The notes beneath the pieces are model-generated. The model was not told where the DNA came from. It ran no database searches and saw only the letters and a program-made list of their open reading frames with translations. A stretch of 64,000 nt of DNA from Mobula hypostoma (lineage: Eukaryota). Of the stretch, positions 8,491 through 57,485 are shown in pieces (the stretch's first letter is position 1; every line of letters begins with the position of its first letter). Where the stretch lies: assembly GCF_963921235.1 (NCBI RefSeq), contig NC_086097.1, forward strand, positions 67,644,001 to 67,708,000, read 5' to 3'. Made by a program: the position numbers and the translations under genes.

Positions 8491-9522
8491 CAGGGGCAGG
8501 TAGTTTTGAGGAAGTAGAGAAGCCACAGAAGGATTTAGACACATTAGGAGAATGGGCAAAAAAGTGGCAGATGGAATACAGTGTTGGGAATTGAATGGCC
8601 ATGCACTTTGGAAGAAGAAATAAAAGGGTTGACTATTTTTTAAATGTAGAGAAAATTCAAAAATATGAGGTGCAAAAGGATTTGGGAGTCCTTGTGCAGG
8701 ATTTCCTAAAGGGTAATTCGCAGGTTGAGTCTGTGGTAAGGAAGGTAAATGCAATGCTAGCATTCATTTCAAGTGGATTAGAAGATAAAATCAAAGATGT
8801 ATTGTTCAGGCTTTATAAAGCACTGGTGAGGCCTCACTTGGCGTATTGTGAGCAGCTTTGGGCCCCCTATACAAGAAGTGATGTGCTGACACTGGAGTGG
8901 GTTCTAAGGAAGTTCTCGAAAATGATTCAAGAATTGAAAATGAGGGTAACCTATTTGGAACTTATTGAATGTTGAAAGGCCTTGATAGAGTGGATGTGGA
9001 GAGAATGTTTCTTATGGTGAGAGAGTCTAGGACTAGAGGACACAGCCTCAGAATAGAGGGATGTCCTTTTAGATGGACATGAGGAGGAATGTCTTTAGTC
9101 AGTGACTGGTGAATCTGTGGAATTCATTGTCACAGGTGGCTGTAGAGGCCGTCTTTATGGATATTTCAGGCAGTGGTTGATAGATTTCTTAAACAAGAGA
9201 GAATCTGCAGCTACTGGAAATCCAAGCAACACACACAAAATACTGGAGAAACTCAGCAGGCCAGGCAACATCTTTGGAAAATAGTATAGTTGACGTCTCG
9301 GCCTGAAACGTCAACTGTACTTTTATCCATGGATGCTGCCTGGCCTTCTGAGTCCTTCCAGCATTTTGTGTGTGTTGATAGATTCTTGATTGGTCAGGGC
9401 ATGAAGAGATACAGAGAGAAGGCAGGAGATTGGGGCTGAGAGGAAAATTAGATCAACCATGATGAAATGGTGGAGCAGACTCAAAGGGCTAAATGCTCCT
9501 ATATCTTTTGGCCTTCTGGTCT
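8491..9522 (+). mobile_element. CR1 LINE 3' end nested in the R4 element
   Basis: QKDLGVLVQD...YKALVRPHLAYCEQLW; colinear with the copy at 35270-36155. Confidence 0.9.
9191..9374. mobile_element. PLE-derived foldback (hairpin) mini-element with about 13-bp TSD
   Basis: Inverted arms of about 70 bp centred on the hammerhead stem II segment. Flanking duplication TTGATAGATT(T)CTT at 9177-9190 and 9375-9387; the empty site is visible in the CR1 copy near 36000. Confidence 0.85.
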
Positions 9523-10152
9523 TAATATTACAGGATAAACAAGCCAGAACAACTTACTTCAAAGATATCATCATTCCAAACACACATACCATGCAGAAAT
9601 CAGTAAGTGAAATACAGCAGGAAAATGCTGAATTAAAAGAGGACATTGAAAGACTTTGGACCATGAATAGGGTATACATTGTCCCAACGTAATATCTGCA
9701 ACTGGAATCATCCCAAAGTCACTACACAATAGCATTAAACAATTAGGCCTACACAGCAATATTTATGTAAATCTCCAGAAAGCCACAATGCTAAACTCCA
9801 TTAGAATAGTCCAAAAGTTCTCAGCAATTGAAAAATGAGTGTGCTTCGTTATGCATGTTCCTCAAGTTTTACCAGCTTGAGCAGAGAAACATAAAAATAC
9901 AATAATAATAATAAATAAATGAGCAATAAATATTGTGAACATGAGGTGAAGAGTCCTTGAAAGTGAGTCCATAGTTTGTGGGAACAGTTCAGTGATGGGG
10001 TAAGTGAAGTTGAGTGAAGTTATCCCCTCTGGTTTAGGTAGCTGATGGTTGAGAGGTAATAACCATTCCTAAACCTGGCAGTGTGAGTCTCGAAGCACCT
10101 GTACCTTCTTCCTTACAGCAGCAGTGAGAAGCAAGCATGACCTGGGTGGTGT

Positions 10153-10200
10153 GGGTTAGGGTTAGGGTTAGGGTTAGGGTTAGTGTTAACCCTAACCCTA
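10153..10200. repeat. Short interstitial telomeric sequence, head-to-head (TTAGGG)4-TTAGTG-TTAA-CCCTAA-CCCTA
   Basis: Read directly from the sequence. It replaces about 17 nt of the host LINE, judged by sister copies near 30610 and 31675. Confidence 0.9.
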
Positions 10201-11560
10201 CTGCTGCCTTCCTGTGACAATGCTCCATGCAGATGTACTCAATGGTGGGAAGGGATTTACCTGTGATGGATGGGCTAAATCCACTACTTTTTGCAGGATT
10301 TTCCATTCAGGGACATGGGTGTTTTCATACCAGGCTATGATGCAGCCAGTCAATATACTCTCCACCACACATCAATAGAAGATTGTCAGAGTTTTAGATG
10401 TTATGCCGAGCTTTGCAAACTTGTAAGGAAGTAGAGGCATTGTTGTGCTTTCTTTATAACTGCACTTACTGAGCCCAAGACAGATCCTCTGAAAAGATAA
10501 CACCAAAGAATTTAAAGTTGCTGACCCTTTCTGTCTTTGATCCCCCGGTGAGGACTGGCTCATGGACCTCTGATTTGGTCAGTAATCAGCTCTTTGGTTT
10601 TGCTGCCGTTGGGTGAGAGGTTGTGGTTATGCCACCATTCAGCCAGATTCTCAATCTCCCTCCAATATGCAGGTTTGTAACCACCTTTGATTTGGTCTAA
10701 GACAGTAGTGTTGTCAGAAAACTTGAATATGCCAATTGGAGCTGCGCTTAGACACACAGCCGTAAGTATAAAGCATGTAGAGCAGTGGTCTAAGCACACA
10801 GCCTTGGGGTGCACCTGTGCTGATGGAGATCGTGGAGGAGATATTGTTGTCCATCTGAACTGACAGGGATTTGCAAGTGAGGAAATCAAGGATCCAATTG
10901 CACCAGATGGTTTTGAAGCCAAGGTCTTGAAGCTTATTGATAAGTTTTGTATTGATTAGCTTATTGATCACAAACATTGTTCAGGGGAGCAGGCAAGTCT
11001 TCCCATATGTAGGTGTAGCTCTTAGAGAAGGGACATGCTTAGACCACTAGCTCTAACCTGGCTGTGGGTTCAAAACTGGCTGGTCACTTGCAGCTGTATG
11101 AACTGTCTACGGGCAGTTTCAGGTTGGCCAATGGCTGGCTAATTGTGGATTAGTTGCTTCATGATGCCGGATGGGTAACAGTTAGAGACTTAATCCCAGT
11201 TATGCTGTTGCTGGCTTTGCTGCCTGACAGGCATCTGAAAACTGAATAGCTGCTTTAGGTTGGTAGAGGGTATGCTAATCCAAATTTGTAATTATGATAT
11301 AGAGTGTCTGGGGCAGGAACTCAAGATAGATCACCTGCACCTAGGTTGTCATCCTCAGCTTCTCTGTTTTGTGAAAGTGGAGACTTCCAGTACAATTGAT
11401 TCCACACTGCCACTATATGTCTGTGCAGTTGAGGGCTTAGTGTAAAGCAGCACATGTGGATAGCAGATCAGATTGTACATAATCCAACCCAATTGGTTTA
11501 TGGATTCACAGAAAGATATACTCAAAAACCCTAGGGAGAAAATAACATCATATTTTTATA

Positions 11561-11677
11561 AAAGTTGCTGATGAATGCAGCAGGCTAGGCAGCATGCTGC
11601 CTGGCCTTATGCGTTCCCAGCAACTTTTATGTGTGTTGCTTGAAATCCCAGCATCTGCAGATTTCCTCGTGTTTGCG
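11561..11677. mobile_element. PLE-derived mini foldback with perfect 14-bp TSD
   Basis: ATCATATTTTTATA at 11547-11560 and 11678-11691; arms centred on GGCAGCATGCTGCC. Confidence 0.88.
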
Positions 11678-12143
11678 ATCATATTTTTATACTCTTTTGC
11701 AAATGCAATCATCCATTCTTCATAGATGATATTGAGTTCACCATGGTCATGATGCAGATCCATATCTTTCCACATTGTTGCATTTGAGGAAAGGTTTTTT
11801 TCTGCGTTGTTCACTATAGCCATATTTCACTGTGAAGTGAACGGAGATTTTAACATTTGTAATCTTGATGAACCTCAATTGGGTATCTGAGGAGGTGATG
11901 AGGGAAATTAAGGAAGAGCATACATTTATAAAAACAAAAACAGAAAATACTGCAAAATTGAGCACTTCATGTGGCGTCTGTGGAAAGGGAAGCAGTTAAC
12001 TGCTCAGATTAAAGAAGCTTCATCAAAATGGAGAAAAAGAAATAAAAACAACAGGAATTCTGCAGATGCTGGAAATTCAAGCAACACACATCAGAGTTGC
12101 TGGTGAACACTGCAGGCCAGGCAGCATCTCTAGGAAGAGGTAC

Positions 12144-12179
12144 AGTCGACGTTTCAGGCCGAGACCCTTCGTCAGGACT
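12144..12179 (-). ncRNA. Minimal type-I hammerhead ribozyme, intact core, sense to NPAS3
   Basis: Minus strand reads AGTC CTGACGA AGGGTCTCGGCCT GAAA CGTC GACT: stem I AGTC/GACT, core CUGANGA...GAAA, GUC cleavage triplet, palindromic ACGU stem III. Confidence 0.8.
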
Positions 12180-13637
12180 AACTGAAGGAAGAGTTAGTAA
12201 GGGATTTGAAAGTGGGAGGGGGAGGGGGAGATCCAAAATGATAGGAGAAGACAGGAGGGGGAGGGATGGAGCCAAGACTGGACAGGTGATTGGCAAAAGG
12301 GAAGCAGCGCCAAGGCGTTGACTTTATTAACTTTGCCTCCAACTTTCACCCTGCCCTCAAGTTTACCTGGTCCATTTCTGACACCTCCCTCCCCTTTCTA
12401 GATCTTTCTGTCTCTATCTCTGGAGACAGCTTATCTACTGATGTCTACTGTAAGCCTACTGACTCTCACAGCTATCTGGACTATTCCTCTTCTCACCCTG
12501 TCTCTTGCAAAAATGCCATCCCCTTCTCGCAATTCCTCCATCTCCACCGCATCTGCTCTCAGGATGAGGCTTTTCATTCCAGGACGAGGGAGATGTCCTC
12601 CTTTTTTAAAGAAAGAGGCTTCCCTTCCTCCACCATCAACTCTGCTCTCAAACACAACTCCCCCATTTCACGCACATCTGCTCTCACTCCATCCTCCCGC
12701 CACCCCACTAGGAATAGGGTTCCCCTGGTCCTCACCTACCACCCCACCAGCCTCCGGGTCCAACATATTATTCTCCGTAACTTCCGCCACCTCCAACGGG
12801 ATTCCACCACTAAGCACATCTTTCCCTCCCCCCATCTCTCTGCTTTCCGCAGGGATTGCGCCCTACACGACTTCTTTGTCCATTCGTTTCCCCCCCATCC
12901 CTCCCCACTGATCACCCTCCTGGTACTTATCCTTGTAAGCGGAACAAGTGCTACACATGCCCTTACACTTCCTTCCTTACCACCATTCAGGGCCCCAAAC
13001 AGTCCTTCCAGGTGAGGCGACACTTCACCTGTGAGTCGACTGGGGTGATATACTGCATCCGGTGCTCCCGATGTGGCCTTCTATATATTGGTGAGACCCG
13101 ACGCAGACTGGGAGACCGCTCTGCTGAACACCTACGCTCTGTCCGCCAGAGAAAGGAGGATCTCCCTGTGGCCACACATTTTAATTCCACATCCCATTCC
13201 TATTCTGACATGTCTATCCACGGCCTCCTCTACTGTAAAGATGAAGCCACACTCAGGTTGGAGGAACAACACCTTATATTCTGTCTGGGTAGCCTTGAAC
13301 CTGATGGCATGAACATTGACTTCTCAAACTTCCGCTAATGCCCCAACTCCCCTTCGTACCCCATCCATTATTTATTTTTATACACACATTCTTTCTCTCA
13401 CTCTCCTTTTTCTCCCTCTGTCCCTCTGACTATACCCCTTGCCCATCCTCTGGGTTTCCCCCCCCCCCGGCTTTTCCTTTTCCCTGGGCCTCCTGTCCCA
13501 TGATCCTCTCATATCCCCTTTGCCAATCACCTGTCCAGCTCTTGGCTCCATCCCTCCCCCTCCTGTCTTCTCCTATCATTTTGGATCTCTCCCTCCCCCT
13601 CCCACTTTCAAATCTCTTACTAACTTTTCCTTCAGTT

Positions 13638-13673
13638 TGTCCTGACGAAGGGTCTCGGCCTGAAACTTCGACT
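13638..13673 (+). ncRNA. Hammerhead ribozyme motif, stem III mutated
   Basis: TGTC CTGACGA AGGGTCTCGGCCT GAAA CTTC GACT. Confidence 0.7.
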
Positions 13674-13840
13674 GTACCTCTTCCTAGAGATGCTGCCTGG
13701 CCTGCTGCGTTCCCCAGCAACTTTGATGTGTGTTGCTTGAAAAAGAAATAAAGTTAGTCTAAGTAGCAGATAAGGCAAGGGAGGGCAATGGTGGAACAAA
13801 GGAAATTTCTGTGATTAGGTGAAATAATGTAGCTGTTTAG

Positions 13841-14021
13841 AAACACGAGATTCTGCAGATGCTGGAGATCTAGAGCAACAGATATAAAAACGCTGGAGGA
13901 ACTCAGCAGGTCAGGCAGCATTCGAAAAGAATAAACAATGGATGTCTCGGCCCAAAACATTGATAGTACTCTCTTCCGTAGATGCTGTCTGACCTGCTGA
14001 GTTCCTCCAGCATTTTGTGTG
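13841..14021. mobile_element. PLE-derived foldback mini-element with perfect 13-bp TSD
   Basis: TGTAGCTGTTTAG at 13828-13840 and 14022-14034; same architecture and axis as 9191-9374. Confidence 0.88.
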
Positions 14022-15000
14022 TGTAGCTGTTTAGGAGCTAATACTGCAAAATCTACGTGATGCTGTCTAGTCTATTGGGAGTTCCCAGCAGGGCAGAGTA
14101 TACCAATGAAAGAAAAAAGAACCCAGAAAGGTAGGCAAAAATGACCAGCTCCAAGACAAACCAGTTCTAATGCAAACAGAAAGAAACAGCTAATTATTTA
14201 AAGCTGAAGAAGTCCAGCAGGCATTTAGAGGTGCCTTATTTCTTGCCATGAGTTGTTTTTTTATGTTTAGGGTTCTTATGACATAAATATTTTGCAACCA
14301 AAGGGATACTTTTGGAATTGGTATTGTACTATTATGACAAATGCACTGCAATATTCCACGATCGATAGCTGAGTAAAATAACCAAATATTCTGCTTTTGA
14401 TATGGTTTGAAAGATATTATTGGAAGCACTTTCTGACATGTTTGGAATAAGAGCAGGGGACCATTGCATTTAAATTCTTGATCTCCCATTCTACTTTATC
14501 ATGGCTTCTGCACTTGACGTGTTTACCTGCATTGTACTTATGCCACAACCTGACTGGAAGGTATACGAACAAAAGCTTTTCACTAAATCTCAATACTTGT
14601 AGCAATACTACATGAATACCAGTATGTCCACTCAAACAAGCCTCATCTTGACACTTAACCTGAAATTATTGTATTGGGTTTACTAACCTTTTTTTCCTAG
14701 ACATAGTAAGTGGAAATGGGTTTTTCTTATGTTAGGGTTCTAATGTTATGTGGGTTCAAAGATAGGTTCAGTCCTTTTCAATACTGAAGTCATTGAGATG
14801 TAAAGGACAACTATACATCAATAAGCCAGGGGTTTAAGGTCTGTGTAAGCACAGACATGAGGATGCTGGCACTCAGCTGTCTGGTAGTTGGCTCCATGAT
14901 TTTGACCCAAAAATCGTGATTAACTGACACCAAACAGTAAAGAATTGGAGTGGCTTATTTTCCGTTGGTCCCAAGAGACAAGATAGAGAAAAGGGGAAAA

Positions 15001-15448
15001 GTGTGTGTGTGTGTGTGTGTGTATGCGTGCAGTGGGGTGTGTGCGCACGTGTGGTGGGGTGCATGTGTGCATGTGTTGGTGGTGGTGTGTGTGTGTGTGT
15101 GTGTGGTGGGGTGTGCATGTTGGTGGTGGTGTGTGTGTGTGTGTGTGTGTGTGCATGTGTTGTGGGGTGCGTGTCTGTGTTGTGTGGTGGGGTGTGTGTG
15201 TGTGTGCACGTACGGCAGGGTGTGCGAGTGTGTCTTGTGGCGGGGTGTGTGTGCATGTGCGTGTGGTGGGGTGTGTATGGTGGTGTGTGTGCGCGTATGG
15301 TGGGGTGTGTGTGTGGTGGTGGTGTGTGTGCATGTGCGTGTGGTGGGGTGTGGGGTGTGTATGGTGGTGTGTGTGCGCGTATGGTGGGGTGTGTGTGTGG
15401 TGGTGGTGTGTGTGCATGTGCGTGTGGTGGGGTGTGTGTGTTGGTGGT

Positions 15449-15499
<51 letters not shown>
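15001..15499. repeat. Compound (TG)n/(TGG)n microsatellite with an internal about 84-bp tandem duplication
   Basis: Almost entirely G and T on the + strand; the unit ATGGTGGTGTGTGTGCGCGTATGG recurs at 15277 and 15361. Confidence 0.95.
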
Positions 15500-15500
<1 letters not shown>

Positions 15501-16504
15501 GAGAGACAATTGGGAATGTTGACCAGAAGAGTTAAACTAGCTCAAAAGTCTTGTGTGGGTATGAGATTTGGGTTTAATAATAATCAGAATTTTGATTTAC
15601 AAAGTGTGAGACATTTATGATTAGGACAAAATATTGCTCAATTACATTACAGCTTCCCATCCAATCAAATGACCTTGTGGATCTTCATGTGTATACATTC
15701 ATGTATACATGTGCAAGTGCTTACAAACAGCATCAGGTGGGAAGAAGTTTCAGAGGTTCAAAGGTTCATTTATTATCAAAGTATACAGCTTCTCCAGATA
15801 GATGAATTTTAATGCTTATACTGTATAAGAAAGGCATTAAGTGTAAATGCGACTATCAGCATATCTGAGGGCCTGTGTATACAAGGGGTCACCTGGAGGT
15901 ACACATTATGGGGTATATGAAGCATTGTAATAAGCTAAGATGGGTAATCTACCATTACATCCTCATTTTGACTGGTATTTGTTGCCTTTATTTCTGCAGA
16001 CTGGGTCATACTTCTGTCCACAATCTATGATTTTAGCCTCTTAAGGGAAACAGAAGTGTTAACTATAGAAGTATTTCTTATGGAATATTTGAGAAACACA
16101 AGCTAACTGGACTATATTTCAAAGAAAACTTGATTCAGTGAGAATATATGCATTTACCACAAAATAGCCATTCAGTGAAGTGAGATCATCAATATGTATT
16201 TTCTTGAGCTATGTGCTTCAAGTCGAGTGCCATGTAGAGTCAGTTCTAAGAGGCTCTACAAAATCGATTGAACATACTTGTGCAGCTTTTGGAGGACCAT
16301 TATTCCTTGCTATTGTGAAGAGTCTGATCAGAAAAATAACTACGGACTGAGTATACAAGAAAAAGATATTGTACAAAGGACTCATCATGATTAACTTGTG
16401 AAGAGAAAATGGAACAGCTAAAAATTGCATTTTATTAAGTTCAGTCTTTGTGCAAACTAGATGACAATACTATAGACTTCTACTGATCCTGTAAATTTTA
16501 TGTA

Positions 16505-22014: not shown

Positions 22015-22345
22015 ACTCACTCTTCTTCCCGCTCTCATCGGGTAAAGAATATAAAGGTCTGACAGCAGATATCTCCAGGCTCGAGGGCAGCTGCTATCAG
22101 GCTCTTCAACAGGCAACTTACACAATAAGATGGACTCTGGATCTCACAATCTGCATTGTTAGGATTTTGGACTTTACTGTTTACCTACGCTACTGCTCCT
22201 GTCACTTTTACACTTAATTCTGCATTGTCCCGACGAAAGATCTCAGCTCAAAACATTGACTGCTTATTCATTTCCACAGGTAGTACCTGACATGCGGATT
22301 TCCGCCAGCATTTTCTGTACGTTGCTCGATATTGTTTTACCTTGC
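22015..22345 (+). mobile_element. Rex1/Babar-type 3' fragment containing a decayed PLE hammerhead/tail insert (about 22227-22325)
   Basis: LFFPLSSGKEYKGL resembles the Rex C-terminus; the insert begins GTCCCGACGAAAGATCTCAGCTCAAAACATTGACTG. Confidence 0.55.
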
Positions 22346-25492: not shown

Positions 25493-26153
25493 AACACCAA
25501 GATTCATTTTCTTGCTGGCATACTTAATAAATCCAATAACCATAATAGAATCAATGAAAGACCACACCAACAGGCAGACAACTGTCTGCAAAAGACAACA
25601 AACAATGCAAGTACAAAAAGAAAGAAAAATAAATTAATAAACAATAAATGTCGGGAACATGAAATGAAGAGTCCTTGAAAGTGAGTCCATAGGCTGTGGG
25701 AGTAATTTAGTGATAGGGCAAGTGAAGTGGAGTGAAGTTATTGCCTCATTCAGGAGCCTGATGTGTGAGGGGTAACAACTATTCCTAAACCTGACTGTGT
25801 GAGTCCTGAGTCTCCTGTACAATACCCACTATTTTTTGCAGGATTTTCCATTCAAGGGCATTGGTATTCCTATACTAGGCTGTGATACAGCCAATCTCCA
25901 CTTCATATCTACAGAAGTTTGTCAAAGTTACTGATATCATGCCGAATCTTTGCAAAATCCTAAGGAGGTCGAGGTGCTACCATGCTTTCTTTGTAATCAC
26001 ACTTATGTGCTGGGCAAAGGACAGCTCCTCTCCACTGATAACACAGAGAAATTTAAAGTTGCCGATCTTCTCCCCCTCTGATCGCCTGATGAGGACTGGC
26101 TCCTGGACCTCCAGTTTTCTCCACCTGAGGCAAATAATCAGCTCCTTGGTGTT

Positions 26154-26262
26154 CCTTCAGTTAGTTAGTCCTGACGAAGGGTCTCGGCCTGAAACGTCGA
26201 CTGCGCCTCTTCCTATAGATGCTGCCTGGCCTGCTGCGTTCACCAGCAACTTTGATGTGTGT
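26154..26262 (+). mobile_element. 109-bp solo PLE pseudo-LTR fragment with 14-bp TSD (one mismatch)
   Basis: AGCTCCTTGGTGTT at 26140-26153 and AGCTCCTTGGAGTT at 26263-26276. Confidence 0.9.
26167..26202 (+). ncRNA. Minimal type-I hammerhead ribozyme, intact core
   Basis: AGTC CTGACGA AGGGTCTCGGCCT GAAA CGTC GACT, identical over 36 nt to the minus-strand copy at 12144-12179. Confidence 0.8.
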
Positions 26263-28333
26263 AGCTCCTTGGAGTTGCTGAATTTGAGTAAGAAGTTATT
26301 GTTGTGGCACCACTCAGCCAGATTTTTAATCTCCTCCTATACGCTGATCAGTCACCACCTTTGTTTCGGCCTGTAACTGTAGTGTTATCAGCAAACTTGA
26401 ATATGTCATTGGAGCTGGGCTTAGCCACACAGTCATAAGTGTAAAGTGAGTAGAGCAGGGGCCTAAGCACACGGCCTTGTGGTGCATCTGTGCTGATGGC
26501 GATTGTGGAGGAGATGTTGTTGTCAATCTGAATTGATGAGGTCTGGAAGTGAGGAAATCAAGGATCCAATTGCACAAGGAGGTATTGAGGCCAATGTCTT
26601 GAAGCTTATTGATTAGTATTAAGGGTATGATAGTATTGAATGCCGAGCTGTACTCTATAAAGAGCATCCTGATGTACACCTCTTTCCTGTCCAAATGTTC
26701 CCGTTTGAGTGAAGAGCCAATGAAATGGCATCTACTGTAGGCTTGTTGTGGCGGTAGGCAAATTAGAATGGATTCAAGTCATTTCTCAGGCAGAAGTTCA
26801 TATGTTTCATCACCAAACTCTTAAAACACTTCATCAGTGCTACTGGATGATCATCACCGAGGCAGGTTCTTCCTAGGCACTGGTATAATCGAAGCCTGCG
26901 AAAAGCAGTTGGGTACCTCAGACTGCTGAAGTGAGAGGTTAAAGATCTCAGCTGTTGTTCAGCACAGGTCTTTAGTACTCGGCCACATACACCATCTGGG
27001 CCAGATGCTTCCTATGGATTTACTCACCTGAAGGATGCTCTCACATTGGCATCAGAGACCGAAATCATAGGATCACTGGGGCTGTGGGAGATCATGATGG
27101 TTCCTCCATGTTTTGATGGTCAAAGCAAGCATAGAAGACACTGAGCTAACCTGAGAACAAAGCTCTGTTTTCATCTATGTCGATTGATTTCCCTTTGTAA
27201 GAGCTGATAGCATGCAAGACCTGCAAGAGTTGTCAAGTATCCTTCATTGATTCAAGTTTAGTCCAGAATTGCCACTTCACCATGAGATGGCTTTCCAGAG
27301 ATCGTACCTGGACCTCTTGTATCTCTCTTGGTCACCAGAGTTGAATACCTCTGATCTGGCCCTCTACAGATTATGGATCTCATGATTCACTTAGGGCTTC
27401 TGGTTGGAGAAGACTCGGAGTGGTTTTGTGGGGACACACTTGTCTACAACTGTTTTTATAAAGTCTATGACAACAGTGGTGATATTCATTCAGATCTACA
27501 GGTGAGTTCTTTAACATGGCACAGTCCACCAACTCAGAGCAACCACATTGCCGCTCCTCTGCCTCCTGTGACCACCTCTTTGTTGTCCTAATCTCTGGAG
27601 CCTTGATCTTTAGCCTCTGCTTTTATGAAGGTAGGAGAAGGACATGCATACAGGCAGTTTGGACATGAAACAGTCGGCATTCCTTATCTTAGAAGAGCAC
27701 TGGTCTAGTGTGTTGGGACCTCGGGTATGCAGGTTATATGCTGATGGTAATTAGGCACGGATTTCTTCAAACAAGCCTGATTGTTTACCTTAAGTTATCT
27801 GCTGTTGGAATTTGAGATTTAATGAATATTTTCATTGCCAATTTCAGAAGCCTACCTTCAACACTTTGATCTGGAAGCATCTTCTTTTGATAATGTGCTC
27901 TTTGTAGAGTTGAACGACACTCTCTTTATACTGCCAAATAGTAAACTCAGATCAGGATTTACAAGCTAACAGAATTAATCTCTGTAATTCCCTCAATTTA
28001 CCACCATCACTTTTGGGGAAGATAAGCAGAGCCCCTGCAGAACTGATGTAAACAACTTGCTATTTATGATATTTCTCCAAGGATTCCATTGCAGTCGCAG
28101 CGGCAGATCAGGGGAACCCCTGCTGAACTCACAGCAAACGTTTTTATTCGGAATTTAAGTCGAGATTTAGACAAAAACCAAGAACAATTTTTTTTTAAAA
28201 ATGAGTAAAGTCTAATAAATTAGAAACACTTCATAAGAATATACTTAAGTAAATTTCAGAATAACATGTTTCACTTTTTTTTTGGACTCATATGATTTTA
28301 ACTAATGATTGCCTAGAACTTTTATCATGTAAT

Positions 28334-28663
28334 CATAAACACGAGAAAGGCTGCAGATGCTGGAAATTCAAAGCAACACACACAAAATGCTGGAGGAACT
28401 CAGCAGGACAGGCAGCATCTATGGAAAAGAATAAACAATCAACATTTCAGGCTGAGGTCCTTTTTCAGGACTGAAAAGGAAGGGGGAAGATGCCAGAATA
28501 AAAAGGAGGGAGGGGAAGGAGGCTAGGGGGGAGGTGATAGGGGAAGCCAGGTGGGTGGGAAATGTAAAGGGCTGAAGAAGGGTATCGGTGGCAACAACTG
28601 TTTATTCATTTCCTTTGATATTGCCTGACCTATTGAGTTCCTCCAGCATTTTGTGTAAGTTGC
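28334..28663. mobile_element. PLE-derived asymmetric foldback with 13-bp TSD and degenerate hammerheads
   Basis: TTTATCATGTAAT at 28321-28333 and TTTATCGTGTAAT at 28664-28676; minus-strand CAGTC CTGAAAA...GAAA TGTT GATTG at about 28436-28473. Confidence 0.8.
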
Positions 28664-34255: not shown

Positions 34256-34294
34256 TTAACTTAAATATCATATTGATAAAAAAGTAATAGATTA

Positions 34295-34414
34295 ATGCTG
34301 CAAAGAACACAATGATGGAGGTACTCAGTAGATCAAGGAAATGAACAATCACGTTTCAGATCAAAAGCTTTAATCTGTTCTGATGAAGGGTCTCAACCTG
34401 AAACATTGACTGCC
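34295..34414. mobile_element. Old PLE-derived foldback remnant with hammerhead motif
   Basis: CTGATGA (34380) AGGGTCTCAACCT GAAA CATT GACT, preceded by an inverted decayed arm. Confidence 0.6.
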
Positions 34415-35067
34415 ACCTCAATTTAGTTTGCAAAGGTCACTGAGAGCTTAAATCCATCATGGACCCAATCTCACTTCTTTGCCTTGAGTCTCTTAAACAA
34501 TTTTCACTGAATGTAATACTCAAACAACAACACCCCTTCTTCCAACACAGCATGTTACAGCTTCAGAACTCAAATTTAAATTTAACGATTTCAGATAATC
34601 AGCGATTTCACAATTCCTATGTTTGGATCTATCTCTCTCTGGTAATTACAGATTTTATTGGCCTCCTGATATTTAAATCTTAGACATACCTTTGGGTATT
34701 GACTATCCTTCATCATCCTTTACTTGCTGTCAATACCGTGACTAATGTCATTTCAGCTCTCCTGTTCTCCACACGAGTATAGACCTTCCTTTTTGTTCTC
34801 CTGTACCTGCTATCTTTCCACCTCAAAACCTGCTTGATTTCTTGGTTTTTTCAAGATTATTGATCTGCAGTAGTAGCTCTCCACTGATGCTACCTGAATT
34901 GCTAAACATTTCCAGATTTGTTTTTATTTGTGTTTATTCAGGGATCATCAATCTAAGGAAAACTGGATGCATTTACAAAAAAGTAAATAGTGAATAATTT
35001 ATAAAGGTGGGTGATTTCAGGTGTTGGTGAATAGATGTGTGAGAAAAAATGTATGCACATGCACATT

Positions 35068-52417: not shown

Positions 52418-53230
52418 ATTCGAGGAAATGTGCAGATGCTGGGATTTCAAGCAACACACATCAAAGTTGCTGGTGAACGCAGCAGGCCAGGCAGCATCTC
52501 TAGGAAGAGGTACAGTCGTCGTTTCAGGCTGAGACCCTTCGTCAGGACTAATTAAAAGAAGAGCTAGAAAGCGATTTGAAAGTGGGAGTGGGAGGGGGAG
52601 ATCCAAAATGATAGGAGAAGATAGGAGAAGACAGGAGGGGGAGGGATGGAGCCAAGAGCTGGACAGGTGATTGGCAAAAGGAATATGAGAGGATCATGGA
52701 ACAGGAGGCCTAGGGAGAAAGGAAGTGGGGGGGGGGGAAGACCAGAGGATGGGCAAGGAGCATAGTGAGAGGGACAGAGGGAGAAAAAGGAGAGAGAGAA
52801 AAAGAATATATATACACATACACACACATATATATAATAATAATAAATAAATAATGGATGGGGTACGAGGGGGAGGTGGGCATTAACGGAAGTTAGAGAA
52901 GTCAACGTTCATGCCATCGGGTTGGAGGCTACCCAGGCGGAATATAAGATGTTGTTCTTCCAACCTGAGTGTGGCTTCATCTTTACAGTAGAGGAGGCCG
53001 TGGATAGACATGTCAGAATGGGAATGGGGTGTGGAATTAAAATGTGTGGCCACTGGGAGGTCCTGTTTTCTCTGGTGGACAGAGCGTAGGTGTTCAGCGA
53101 AACGGTCTCCCAGTCTGCGTCGGGTCTCGCCAATATATACAAGGCCGCATCAGGAGCACCGGACGCAGTATATCACCCCAGCCGACTCACAGGTGAAGTG
53201 TCGCCTCACCTGGAAGGACTCACTGGGGCC
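52418..53230 (-). mobile_element. Penelope-like element 3' part (GIY-YIG plus pseudo-LTR)
   Basis: Reverse complement of about 12990-13740; hammerhead at 52514-52549 with the triplet GTC changed to GAC. Confidence 0.92.
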
Positions 53231-53263
53231 CCCTTACCCCATCTATTATTTATTTATTATTAT

Positions 53264-53267
<4 letters not shown>

Positions 53268-53336
<69 letters not shown>
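53268..53336. repeat. (TG)n microsatellite at the end of a short inverted PLE fragment
   Basis: Pure TG run preceded by ACCCCATCTATTATTTATTTATTATTATTATAT, an inverted copy of about 52830-52865. Confidence 0.95.
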
Positions 53337-56177: not shown

Positions 56178-57485
56178 TCAGAATCAGGATCAGGTTTAAT
56201 GTCACTGGCAGTTGTCATGAAATATGTTGTTTTGTGGCTGCAGTACGTTGCAAAACATAATAAAAAAACTATGAATTACAATGAGGTATACATATCTATC
56301 TCAACCTCCCACCGCCCCACCAAGAATAGGGTTCCTCTTGTCCTCACCTACCATCCCACCAGCCTCCATGTCTGGCACATAATTCTTCAGAACTTCTGCC
56401 ATCTCCATCGGGGTCCCACCACCAAGCACACCTTTCCTTCCCCCCTACTTTCTGCTTTCCACAGGGATCACTCCATACACGACTCCCTTGTCCATTCATC
56501 CCTCCCCACTGATCTTCCTTCTGGCACTTATCCTGGCAAGCAGAGCAAGTACTACACCTGTCCCAACACCTCCTCCCTCACTACCACTCAGGGCCCCAAA
56601 CAGTCCTTCCAGGTGAGGTGACACTTCACCTGTGAGTCTGTTGGGGTCATCTACTGTATCCGGTGTTCCTGGTGTGGCCTCCTGTATATTGGTGAGACCA
56701 GACGTAGATTGGGAGACTGCTTCGATGAGCACCTGTGCTCCGTCTGCCAGAAAAAGCGGGATCTCCAAGAGGCCATCCATTTCAATTCTACTTCCCATTC
56801 CCATTCCAACACATCAATCGATGGCCTCCTCTGTTGTTGCAATGAGGCCACACACAGGTTGGAGGAGCAACACATTATATTCTGTTGGGTAGCCTCCAAC
56901 CTGATGGCATGAACATCGATTTCTCGAACTTCCAGTATTGCCTACCCCCTCCTTCGCCATTCCCCATTCCCTACTCCCCCTCTCATCTCCTTAGCTGCCC
57001 ATAACCTCCCTCTGGTGCTTCTCCCCCTTTTCATTCTTCCATGGCCTTCTGTCTTTTCCTATCAGATTCCCCTTTTCCAGCCCTCTATCTCTTTCACCAA
57101 ACAACTTACCAGCTCTTTACTTCACCCCTCCCCCCTCCTGGTTTCACCTATCACCTTGTGTTTGTTCCTCCCCTACCCTCACCATCCAAATCCTTATCTA
57201 TTTTTCTCCAGTCCTGATGAAACGTCGACTACACTCTTTTCCATAGATGCTGCCTGGCCTACTGAGTTCCTCCAGCATTTTGTGTATGTTGTATGAGATA
57301 GTGTACATGGTTTTACTGTCCATTCAGAAATCTGATTGCTGTTGGGAAGAAGCTGTTCCTGAAATGTTGAGTGTGTGTCTTCAGGCTCCTGTATCTCCTC
57401 CTTGATGCAATGAAAAGAAGGCACATCCTGGATGGGGGTATTGAATGACATCACCTTTTGAAGCCGTCCTGGAGGCTAGTGCACA
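56178..57485 (-). mobile_element. Rex1/Babar-type 3' end with (TTCTGA)n tail, split by a PLE
   Basis: TCAGAATCAGGATCAGG tail on the + strand; same family as 63090-63850. Confidence 0.75.
56296..57292 (+). mobile_element. Penelope-like element 3' part (older subfamily)
   Basis: NRVPLVLTYHP...QGPKQSFQVR, a GIY-YIG remnant and a pseudo-LTR with a stem II-deleted hammerhead. Confidence 0.9.

Follow-up and report, generated by a model that had tools for sequence, protein, structure and literature searches.

Two Short Head-to-Head Insertions of Penelope-Like Element Terminal Repeats in Mobula hypostoma Share a Junction at a Hammerhead-Region Quasi-Palindrome

Two hairpin-shaped insertions of about 180 bp, here called E1 and E2, were found in a window of 64,000 nt of the Mobula hypostoma genome (assembly GCF_963921235.1, contig NC_086097.1, positions 67,644,001 to 67,708,000 of the forward strand). 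Both are real two-armed insertions made only of the terminal-repeat sequence, the pseudo-long terminal repeat (pLTR), of a Neptune-type Penelope-like element (PLE). They are likely to have formed independently as heavily shortened copies of this abundant PLE, and they belong to the ordinary inverted insertions of PLEs, at the short end of the series. We lean towards a mechanism in which short cDNAs from both nicked target strands annealed to each other at a quasi-palindrome in the hammerhead region. Two-armed insertions were counted where a clear target duplication was found within the window, which holds for five of them.

E1 and E2 have a common layout of tail, inverted arm, 13-nt axis and direct arm, and their junction is the same. 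In E1, the PLE tail of about 36 nt with a TGTTT terminus on the element strand (9191..9226, minus strand) is followed by an inverted pLTR arm of the GGCC and short-spacer (TACT) type (9227..9295, minus strand), by the axis TCTCGGCCTGAAA (13 nt, 9296..9308, plus strand), which carries the 3' part of hammerhead helix II and GAAA in the sense version of the quasi-palindrome, and by an untailed direct pLTR arm, again of the GGCC and short-spacer type (9309..9373, plus strand). In E2, the tail of about 35 nt (13841..13875, minus strand) precedes an inverted pLTR arm of the GACC and long-spacer (TTTATT) type (13876..13944, minus strand), the axis TCTCGGCCCAAAA in a register identical to that of E1 (13 nt, 13945..13957, plus strand), and an untailed direct pLTR arm of the GACC and short-spacer type that has TGT in common with the target (13958..14021, plus strand).

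Each element lies within its own target-site duplication of 13–15 bp, and the duplicated sequences are unrelated. The two copies around E1 (9176..9190 and 9374..9387, both plus strand; 14–15 bp) differ by a 1-nt indel, and those around E2 (13828..13840 and 14022..14034, both plus strand) match at 13/13 positions. Out of 20000 random flank pairs, in which the match did not have to abut an element, 102 reached the duplication score of E1 (24) and 68 that of E2 (26). The left copy of the E1 duplication is inside a repeat that we take to be of the CR1 type and that E1 interrupts; the same repeat runs uninterrupted at about 35.9–36.1 kb, where the duplicated word is single. A preliminary description of the window had placed E2 at 13841–14021, as borne out by both the element and its duplication, and E1 at 9191–9374. 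The start of E1 holds; position 9374 already belongs to the duplication, which begins there, and the element extends over 9191–9373, its pLTR overlapping the target at the right end by GTTG. The different target duplications with the same layout and axis that had been reported for the two elements are confirmed, the axis of E2 being one base off the motif given at the time.

Every part of E1 and E2 can be aligned to the terminal repeat or the tail of longer elements in the window, as had been proposed earlier. The identity to the pLTR and tail of a long PLE insertion at 12047–13738 is 70–78%, and that to plain pLTR copies is up to 81–86% over 71–104 nt. E1 and E2 agree at 139/188 positions (74%), a resemblance no greater than that of either to plain copies. 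Both fold into strong hairpins (−96.9 kcal/mol, z −13.8 for E1; −83.1 kcal/mol, z −9.2 for E2), and 0/200 shuffles fold equally well in either case. These products contain neither an open reading frame (ORF) nor a ribozyme core and were likely dead on arrival. MITEs (miniature inverted-repeat transposable elements) and foldback DNA transposons are short, non-coding and hairpin-shaped, with a target duplication. The earlier comparison of E1 and E2 to MITEs is valid for the shape. We rejected assignment to MITEs because of the retroelement parent, the unrelated duplications of 13–15 bp, and the arms, which are not terminal inverted repeats: the tail of 35–36 nt at one end has no partner. Unlike MITEs, E1 and E2 are without evidence of copying as a unit.

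The preliminary description had considered either a hairpin family that amplifies as a unit or a recurrent product of template switching at one site, and had suggested comparing left and right arms. Among the window copies, the 74-column arm alignment of the two elements has three informative columns that group arms by locus, none that groups them by arm and one crossed column. The clearest by-locus column has GGCC in both arms of E1 and GACC in both arms of E2. Among the contigs of sequencing run X1, this site is split 44% to 54% by depth, and therefore it marks subfamilies. Between the left arms of E1 and E2 there is also a 2-nt indel in the spacer, by which the plain copies fall into two groups. 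The left arm of E2 has the 2-nt-longer spacer, as in the copies at 28337, 28592, 42476 and 22253, and the right arm the short one, as in E1 and the copy at 57222. By this spacer, the two arms of E2 belong to different subfamilies, and such mixed arms fit two templates.

With only two elements to compare, the window data do not support a self-propagating non-autonomous family, in which a founder hairpin would be transcribed and the PLE enzyme would retrotranspose it as one unit, and we consider it improbable. Such a family would explain the base-identical junction in two of the five insertions, which by our arithmetic (10 pairs) has a chance of about 3.5% if there are about 280 symmetric axes; moreover, one strand of the hairpin terminates in an intact pLTR end with a tail, a likely start site for the enzyme, and non-autonomous PLE derivatives are known, namely retrozymes (10.64898/2026.07.22.740005) and MRC1 of Chlamys (PMC8557442). 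However, the left arms differ by the subfamily indel, both arms differ at the GGCC/GACC site, and no column groups by arm; to derive E1 and E2 from a single founder, both arms would have to undergo conversion. Their mutual identity, no higher than that to plain copies, argues against the family as well, as does the untailed end of each element, which overlaps its own target in its own way. A hairpin of about −97 kcal/mol would likely mask most of the pLTR end, and the palindrome at the junction accounts for recurrence without descent. The second option, a recurrent product at one site, is supported. A more elaborate version, in which a MITE-shaped hairpin is copied by the Penelope enzyme as an RNA-mobilised foldback family and acquires its subfamily differences by later gene conversion from plain copies, seems to us very improbable.

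The axis of E1 and E2 consists of the 3' half of hammerhead helix II and GAAA, and lies within a 15-nt quasi-palindrome that has 12 Watson-Crick pairs of 15 in antiparallel pairing. Self-duplexes were ranked on two CpG-restored pLTR consensuses, old and young, built by script from the window copies. The quasi-palindrome forms the best self-duplex of 15-mers (−13.2 kcal/mol) among 9730 pairs in the old consensus and 11325 in the young one. With 6/7 paired positions, it is unique among 296 axes of the young consensus and tied with two others among 274 axes of the old one. We suggest that E1 and E2 share their junction because this is the top self-annealing 15-mer of the pLTR.

The junction is located in helix II of the minimal hammerhead, a ribozyme class described in PMC4209133. 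The CTGANGA hammerhead core was found on neither strand of E1 or E2, and the Rfam hammerhead models have no match in the window at E-values up to 1. Numbering and the predicted cut position follow the hammerhead consensus. The inverted arm extends 4–5 nt beyond the predicted cleavage site; therefore, cleavage does not set the turn, and we rejected the idea that the ribozyme cut creates the junction. Of the earlier idea that the hairpins derive from the ribozyme, only the position remains.

The other three two-armed insertions of the window put E1 and E2 into context. The long insertion (12047..13738, plus strand) consists of a tailed inverted pLTR up to about 12302, a 5'-truncated ORF and a direct pLTR with a complete hammerhead motif, within a 14-bp duplication. 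E0 (11561..11677, listed without strand) is a 117-bp insertion of the young subfamily with the tail at the right and a perfect 14-bp duplication (11547–11560 and 11678–11691); its axis, GGCAGC-AT-GCTGCC, differs from that of E1 and E2. E3 (28334..28663, likewise without strand) is a 330-bp insertion of the older subfamily with a long tailed inverted arm and a 13-bp duplication (12/13). Its direct arm begins at the hammerhead core via a common CTG; the GAAAC part after the core is swapped for a few unrelated bases. An inverted truncated pLTR, a one-sided tail of 30–40 bp and a target duplication are present in 5/5 insertions. Each has one tailed end that stops at TGTTT with 0–3 extra bases and one untailed end, which overlaps its own target by 3–4 nt in 4/5 insertions and is ambiguous in E3; tail ends and overlaps were read by eye. 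There are four different junctions among the five insertions, as E0, the long element and E3 each use another one than E1 and E2. The latter two therefore belong to a graded series of insertions whose lengths range from 117 to 1692 bp.

The window also contains one-armed copies. Two further candidates, at about 34290–34420 and at 52423–53286, were excluded from the counts, as no duplication was established for them; in the second, an inverted piece of 60 bp comes after a tailed arm of 810 bp and leads into a long GT microsatellite. Short direct arms that start just upstream of the hammerhead motif were seen at 26152–26266, 22215–22330 and 34366–34420, the first with its own duplication and nested in another repeat. 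A plain pLTR copy has a 15-nt deletion through the hammerhead at 57200–57225, with TGAA repeated at both bounds.

The label of the parent as Neptune-type is based on motifs, because the Pfam score of its endonuclease is just below the curated cutoff: the 3' piece of the ORF of the long element scores 20.4 bits for GIY-YIG, under the cutoff of 22.6, and falls among GIY-YIG clusters in the Atlas (0.97). In direct reading, the ORF at 12814–13338 carries a C-x4-C-x2-C linker and a cysteine pair inside the GIY-YIG domain. The signature given for Neptune and Nematis is a CX2-5CxxC linker before the endonuclease plus two cysteines between GIY and YIG (PMC8557442), and both parts are found here, which suggests a Neptune-type parent. 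The reverse transcriptase region, of which the C-terminal part is present, matches no Pfam family and has no meaningful PDB match.

The existence of long two-armed insertions nearby raises the possibility that a longer head-to-head insertion, like that at 12047–13738, lost its middle after integration, the sense and antisense quasi-palindromes being 12/15-identical direct repeats between which a microhomology-mediated deletion could occur. Microhomology deletions in PLEs have been published (PMC3846280), the deletion near 57200 via a common TGAA is of this kind, and mixed arms as in E2 are compatible with it. Yet a second event at the identical register would be needed in 2/5 insertions, both crossovers would fall at a 2-nt edge and outside the 4-nt identical blocks, and E0, with only 117 bp and another junction, demonstrates that short arms arise anyway. 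We regard such a collapse as unlikely.

For the annealing of two cDNAs, which we favour, the duplications, the tail on one arm, the subfamily differences, the common junction and the rank of the palindrome are observed; the steps that connect them could be as follows. The GIY-YIG endonuclease would nick both strands with a stagger of 13–15 bp. One 3' end would then prime on the sense RNA at the fixed tail end without homology, and the other could prime about 35 nt further in through pairing of 3–4 nt, with another pLTR copy or another RNA as its template. Because the two cDNAs are made from one and the same pLTR segment, two pLTR copies or two RNAs are required. The cDNAs would halt within the structured hammerhead region and anneal to each other, antiparallel, across the quasi-palindrome, and trimming and fill-in would retain one strand's version of the axis. 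Priming at the tail end without homology was reported in the reconstitution of an anole element, whose enzyme, a predicted dimer, cuts and extends both strands from two start sites one tail length apart (PMC11167929). PLE insertions with an inverted pLTR overlapping the direct one, palindromes at junctions, a one-sided tail and a duplication have also been described (PMC3846280).

Self-priming has been put forward for rotifer PLEs in the discussion of the latter paper (PMC3846280): a single nucleic-acid strand would fold at the palindrome and copy itself. This would agree with a junction at a palindrome and with the symmetry of E0, E1 and E2, each about its own axis. States are shared between arms of the same locus (one CpG change in E1, two columns in E2), and the arms of the long element are 95% alike as compared with 89–91% to other young copies. 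Nevertheless, snap-back predicts identical arms, yet those of E2 differ by the subfamily indel. Self-copying cannot make the 35-nt tail, because the strand on which the axis has its fold-back version begins at the end without a tail. The junctions of E3 and of the long element are asymmetric. Snap-back therefore seems doubtful as the origin of E1 and E2. Like collapse and two-template annealing, it implies independent formation.

Several points weigh against annealing of two cDNAs. The published discussion prefers self-priming on an antisense template (PMC3846280). With 21-mers, the palindrome comes first in the old consensus and second and third in the young one, and on two real CpG-decayed copies it is outside the top six self-duplexes; its rank therefore depends on CpG restoration. 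The junction itself has only a 2-nt common word (GT), at the edge of the palindrome, and the 15-bp heteroduplex at this place is one that we infer. The arm tree leaves the old copies unresolved (72 columns, 1/11 inner branches starred) and was uninformative. Recurrent mutation could account for two of the three by-locus columns, and gene conversion, from arm to arm or ectopic, could yield both the by-locus pattern and the mixed arms of E2. Only two elements with the E1/E2 junction have been seen. Finally, a saturated contig alignment lists 15 of 726 joints and 12 of 289 inserts, and this junction does not occur among those listed.

For this alignment, contigs of four public runs (4 of 24; four organisms) were compared to the plain tailed arm at 28330–28590. 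The numbers of matching contigs per run were 196037, 179846, 149296 and 98492. The parent PLE is very abundant in all four runs; these contig counts of about 10^5 per run are not copy numbers. Reference mismatches at 28438–28444, beside the axis, likely shorten alignments. Behind position 28437, the loose ends run on as plain pLTR in 4/4 runs (1272, 1129, 1091 and 532 contigs; agreement about 0.6), and therefore the E1/E2 form is not how the majority continues. Among the loose ends, 24 of 1626 are listed, and each listed joint has at most 5 contigs per run. The contig data do not confirm the hotspot step of the proposed mechanism.

Two groups of opposite-strand joints were observed in the same alignment. 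Those at 28331–28336 and 28371–28376 link the tail end to the untailed pLTR end in 2–3 of the 4 runs per row, and are possibly insertions beside or into the end of another copy, or assembly artefacts. The cluster at 28396–28403 and 28434–28437, with two rows in all 4 runs among the joints listed, possibly reflects another favoured junction or an effect of the mismatches at 28438–28444.

In twin priming of L1, both target ends prime and the two cDNAs join by microhomology, giving an inversion. The primers of L1 copy different parts of one RNA, whereas the arms of E1 and E2 copy the same pLTR segment. The closest counterparts are Pen2a_Av and Pen3a_Av of Adineta vaga, which also have head-to-head pLTRs in one duplication, a 5' truncation, a tail of 30–40 bp on one end, and an inverted junction marked by a palindrome or an overlap (PMC3846280); a general scheme of inverted-pLTR insertion is given in figure 2 of PMC8557442. 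Unlike in the PLEs of A. vaga, truncation in E1 and E2 took the whole ORF together with one half of the hammerhead. The duplication is 13–15 bp rather than 8–10 bp (PMC3846280), two copies have one junction, and the parent is Neptune-type and extremely abundant.

The anole Poseidon element PAc studied in vitro (Frangieh et al. 2024, PMC11167929) resembles our proposal in that both strands are cut and extended, with two starts a tail length apart; its start is free of homology, a dimer is predicted, and hammerhead cleavage is dispensable. Unlike the parent of E1 and E2, PAc belongs to the Poseidon clade, and the untailed ends seen here overlap the target by 3–4 nt. The main text of that paper, as consulted, does not treat the joining of inverted arms. 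Animal non-LTR (long terminal repeat) retrozymes are likewise short, non-coding and derived from pLTRs; however, they are head-to-tail repeats with complete hammerheads (10.64898/2026.07.22.740005), while E1 and E2, with arms placed head-to-head, are devoid of a catalytic core. Assignment of E1 and E2 to this class was rejected, as they contain no complete type I hammerhead per unit and their arms are not in tandem.

Pattern scans found 0 relatives in metagenome contigs, viral contigs and prokaryote genomes. A looser 20-mer scan of the metagenome contigs gave 44 loci, none matching past 22 nt, which were rejected as chance matches. The sole Rfam match in the window, Plastid-psbJ-4, scores 40 bits where the gathering score is 55.2 and was rejected as a generic hairpin. 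A literature search of titles and abstract starts, with Repbase, Dfam, subscription journals and supplements outside its scope, found nothing on a self-propagating PLE hairpin or on the E1/E2 junction; prior annotation of such short PLE forms is quite possible. Elsewhere in the window, about five telomeric GGGTTA units stand head-to-head with two or three TAACCC units within an interspersed repeat (10153–10200), and a complex GT-rich tandem repeat of about 500 bp is found at 14993–15525.

Such hairpins could be mistaken in annotation for MITEs or for structured RNA genes, as the sub-threshold Rfam plastid match illustrates. E1 and E2 are best seen as an ordinary by-product of PLE integration, and their value lies in the evidence they give on its mechanism. 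The formation of inverted PLE ends is described as unresolved in PMC8557442. The abundance of the parent and the subfamily markers inside the arms allow priming on two templates and snap-back to be tested against each other by counting, for which the mixed arms of E2 are one data point.

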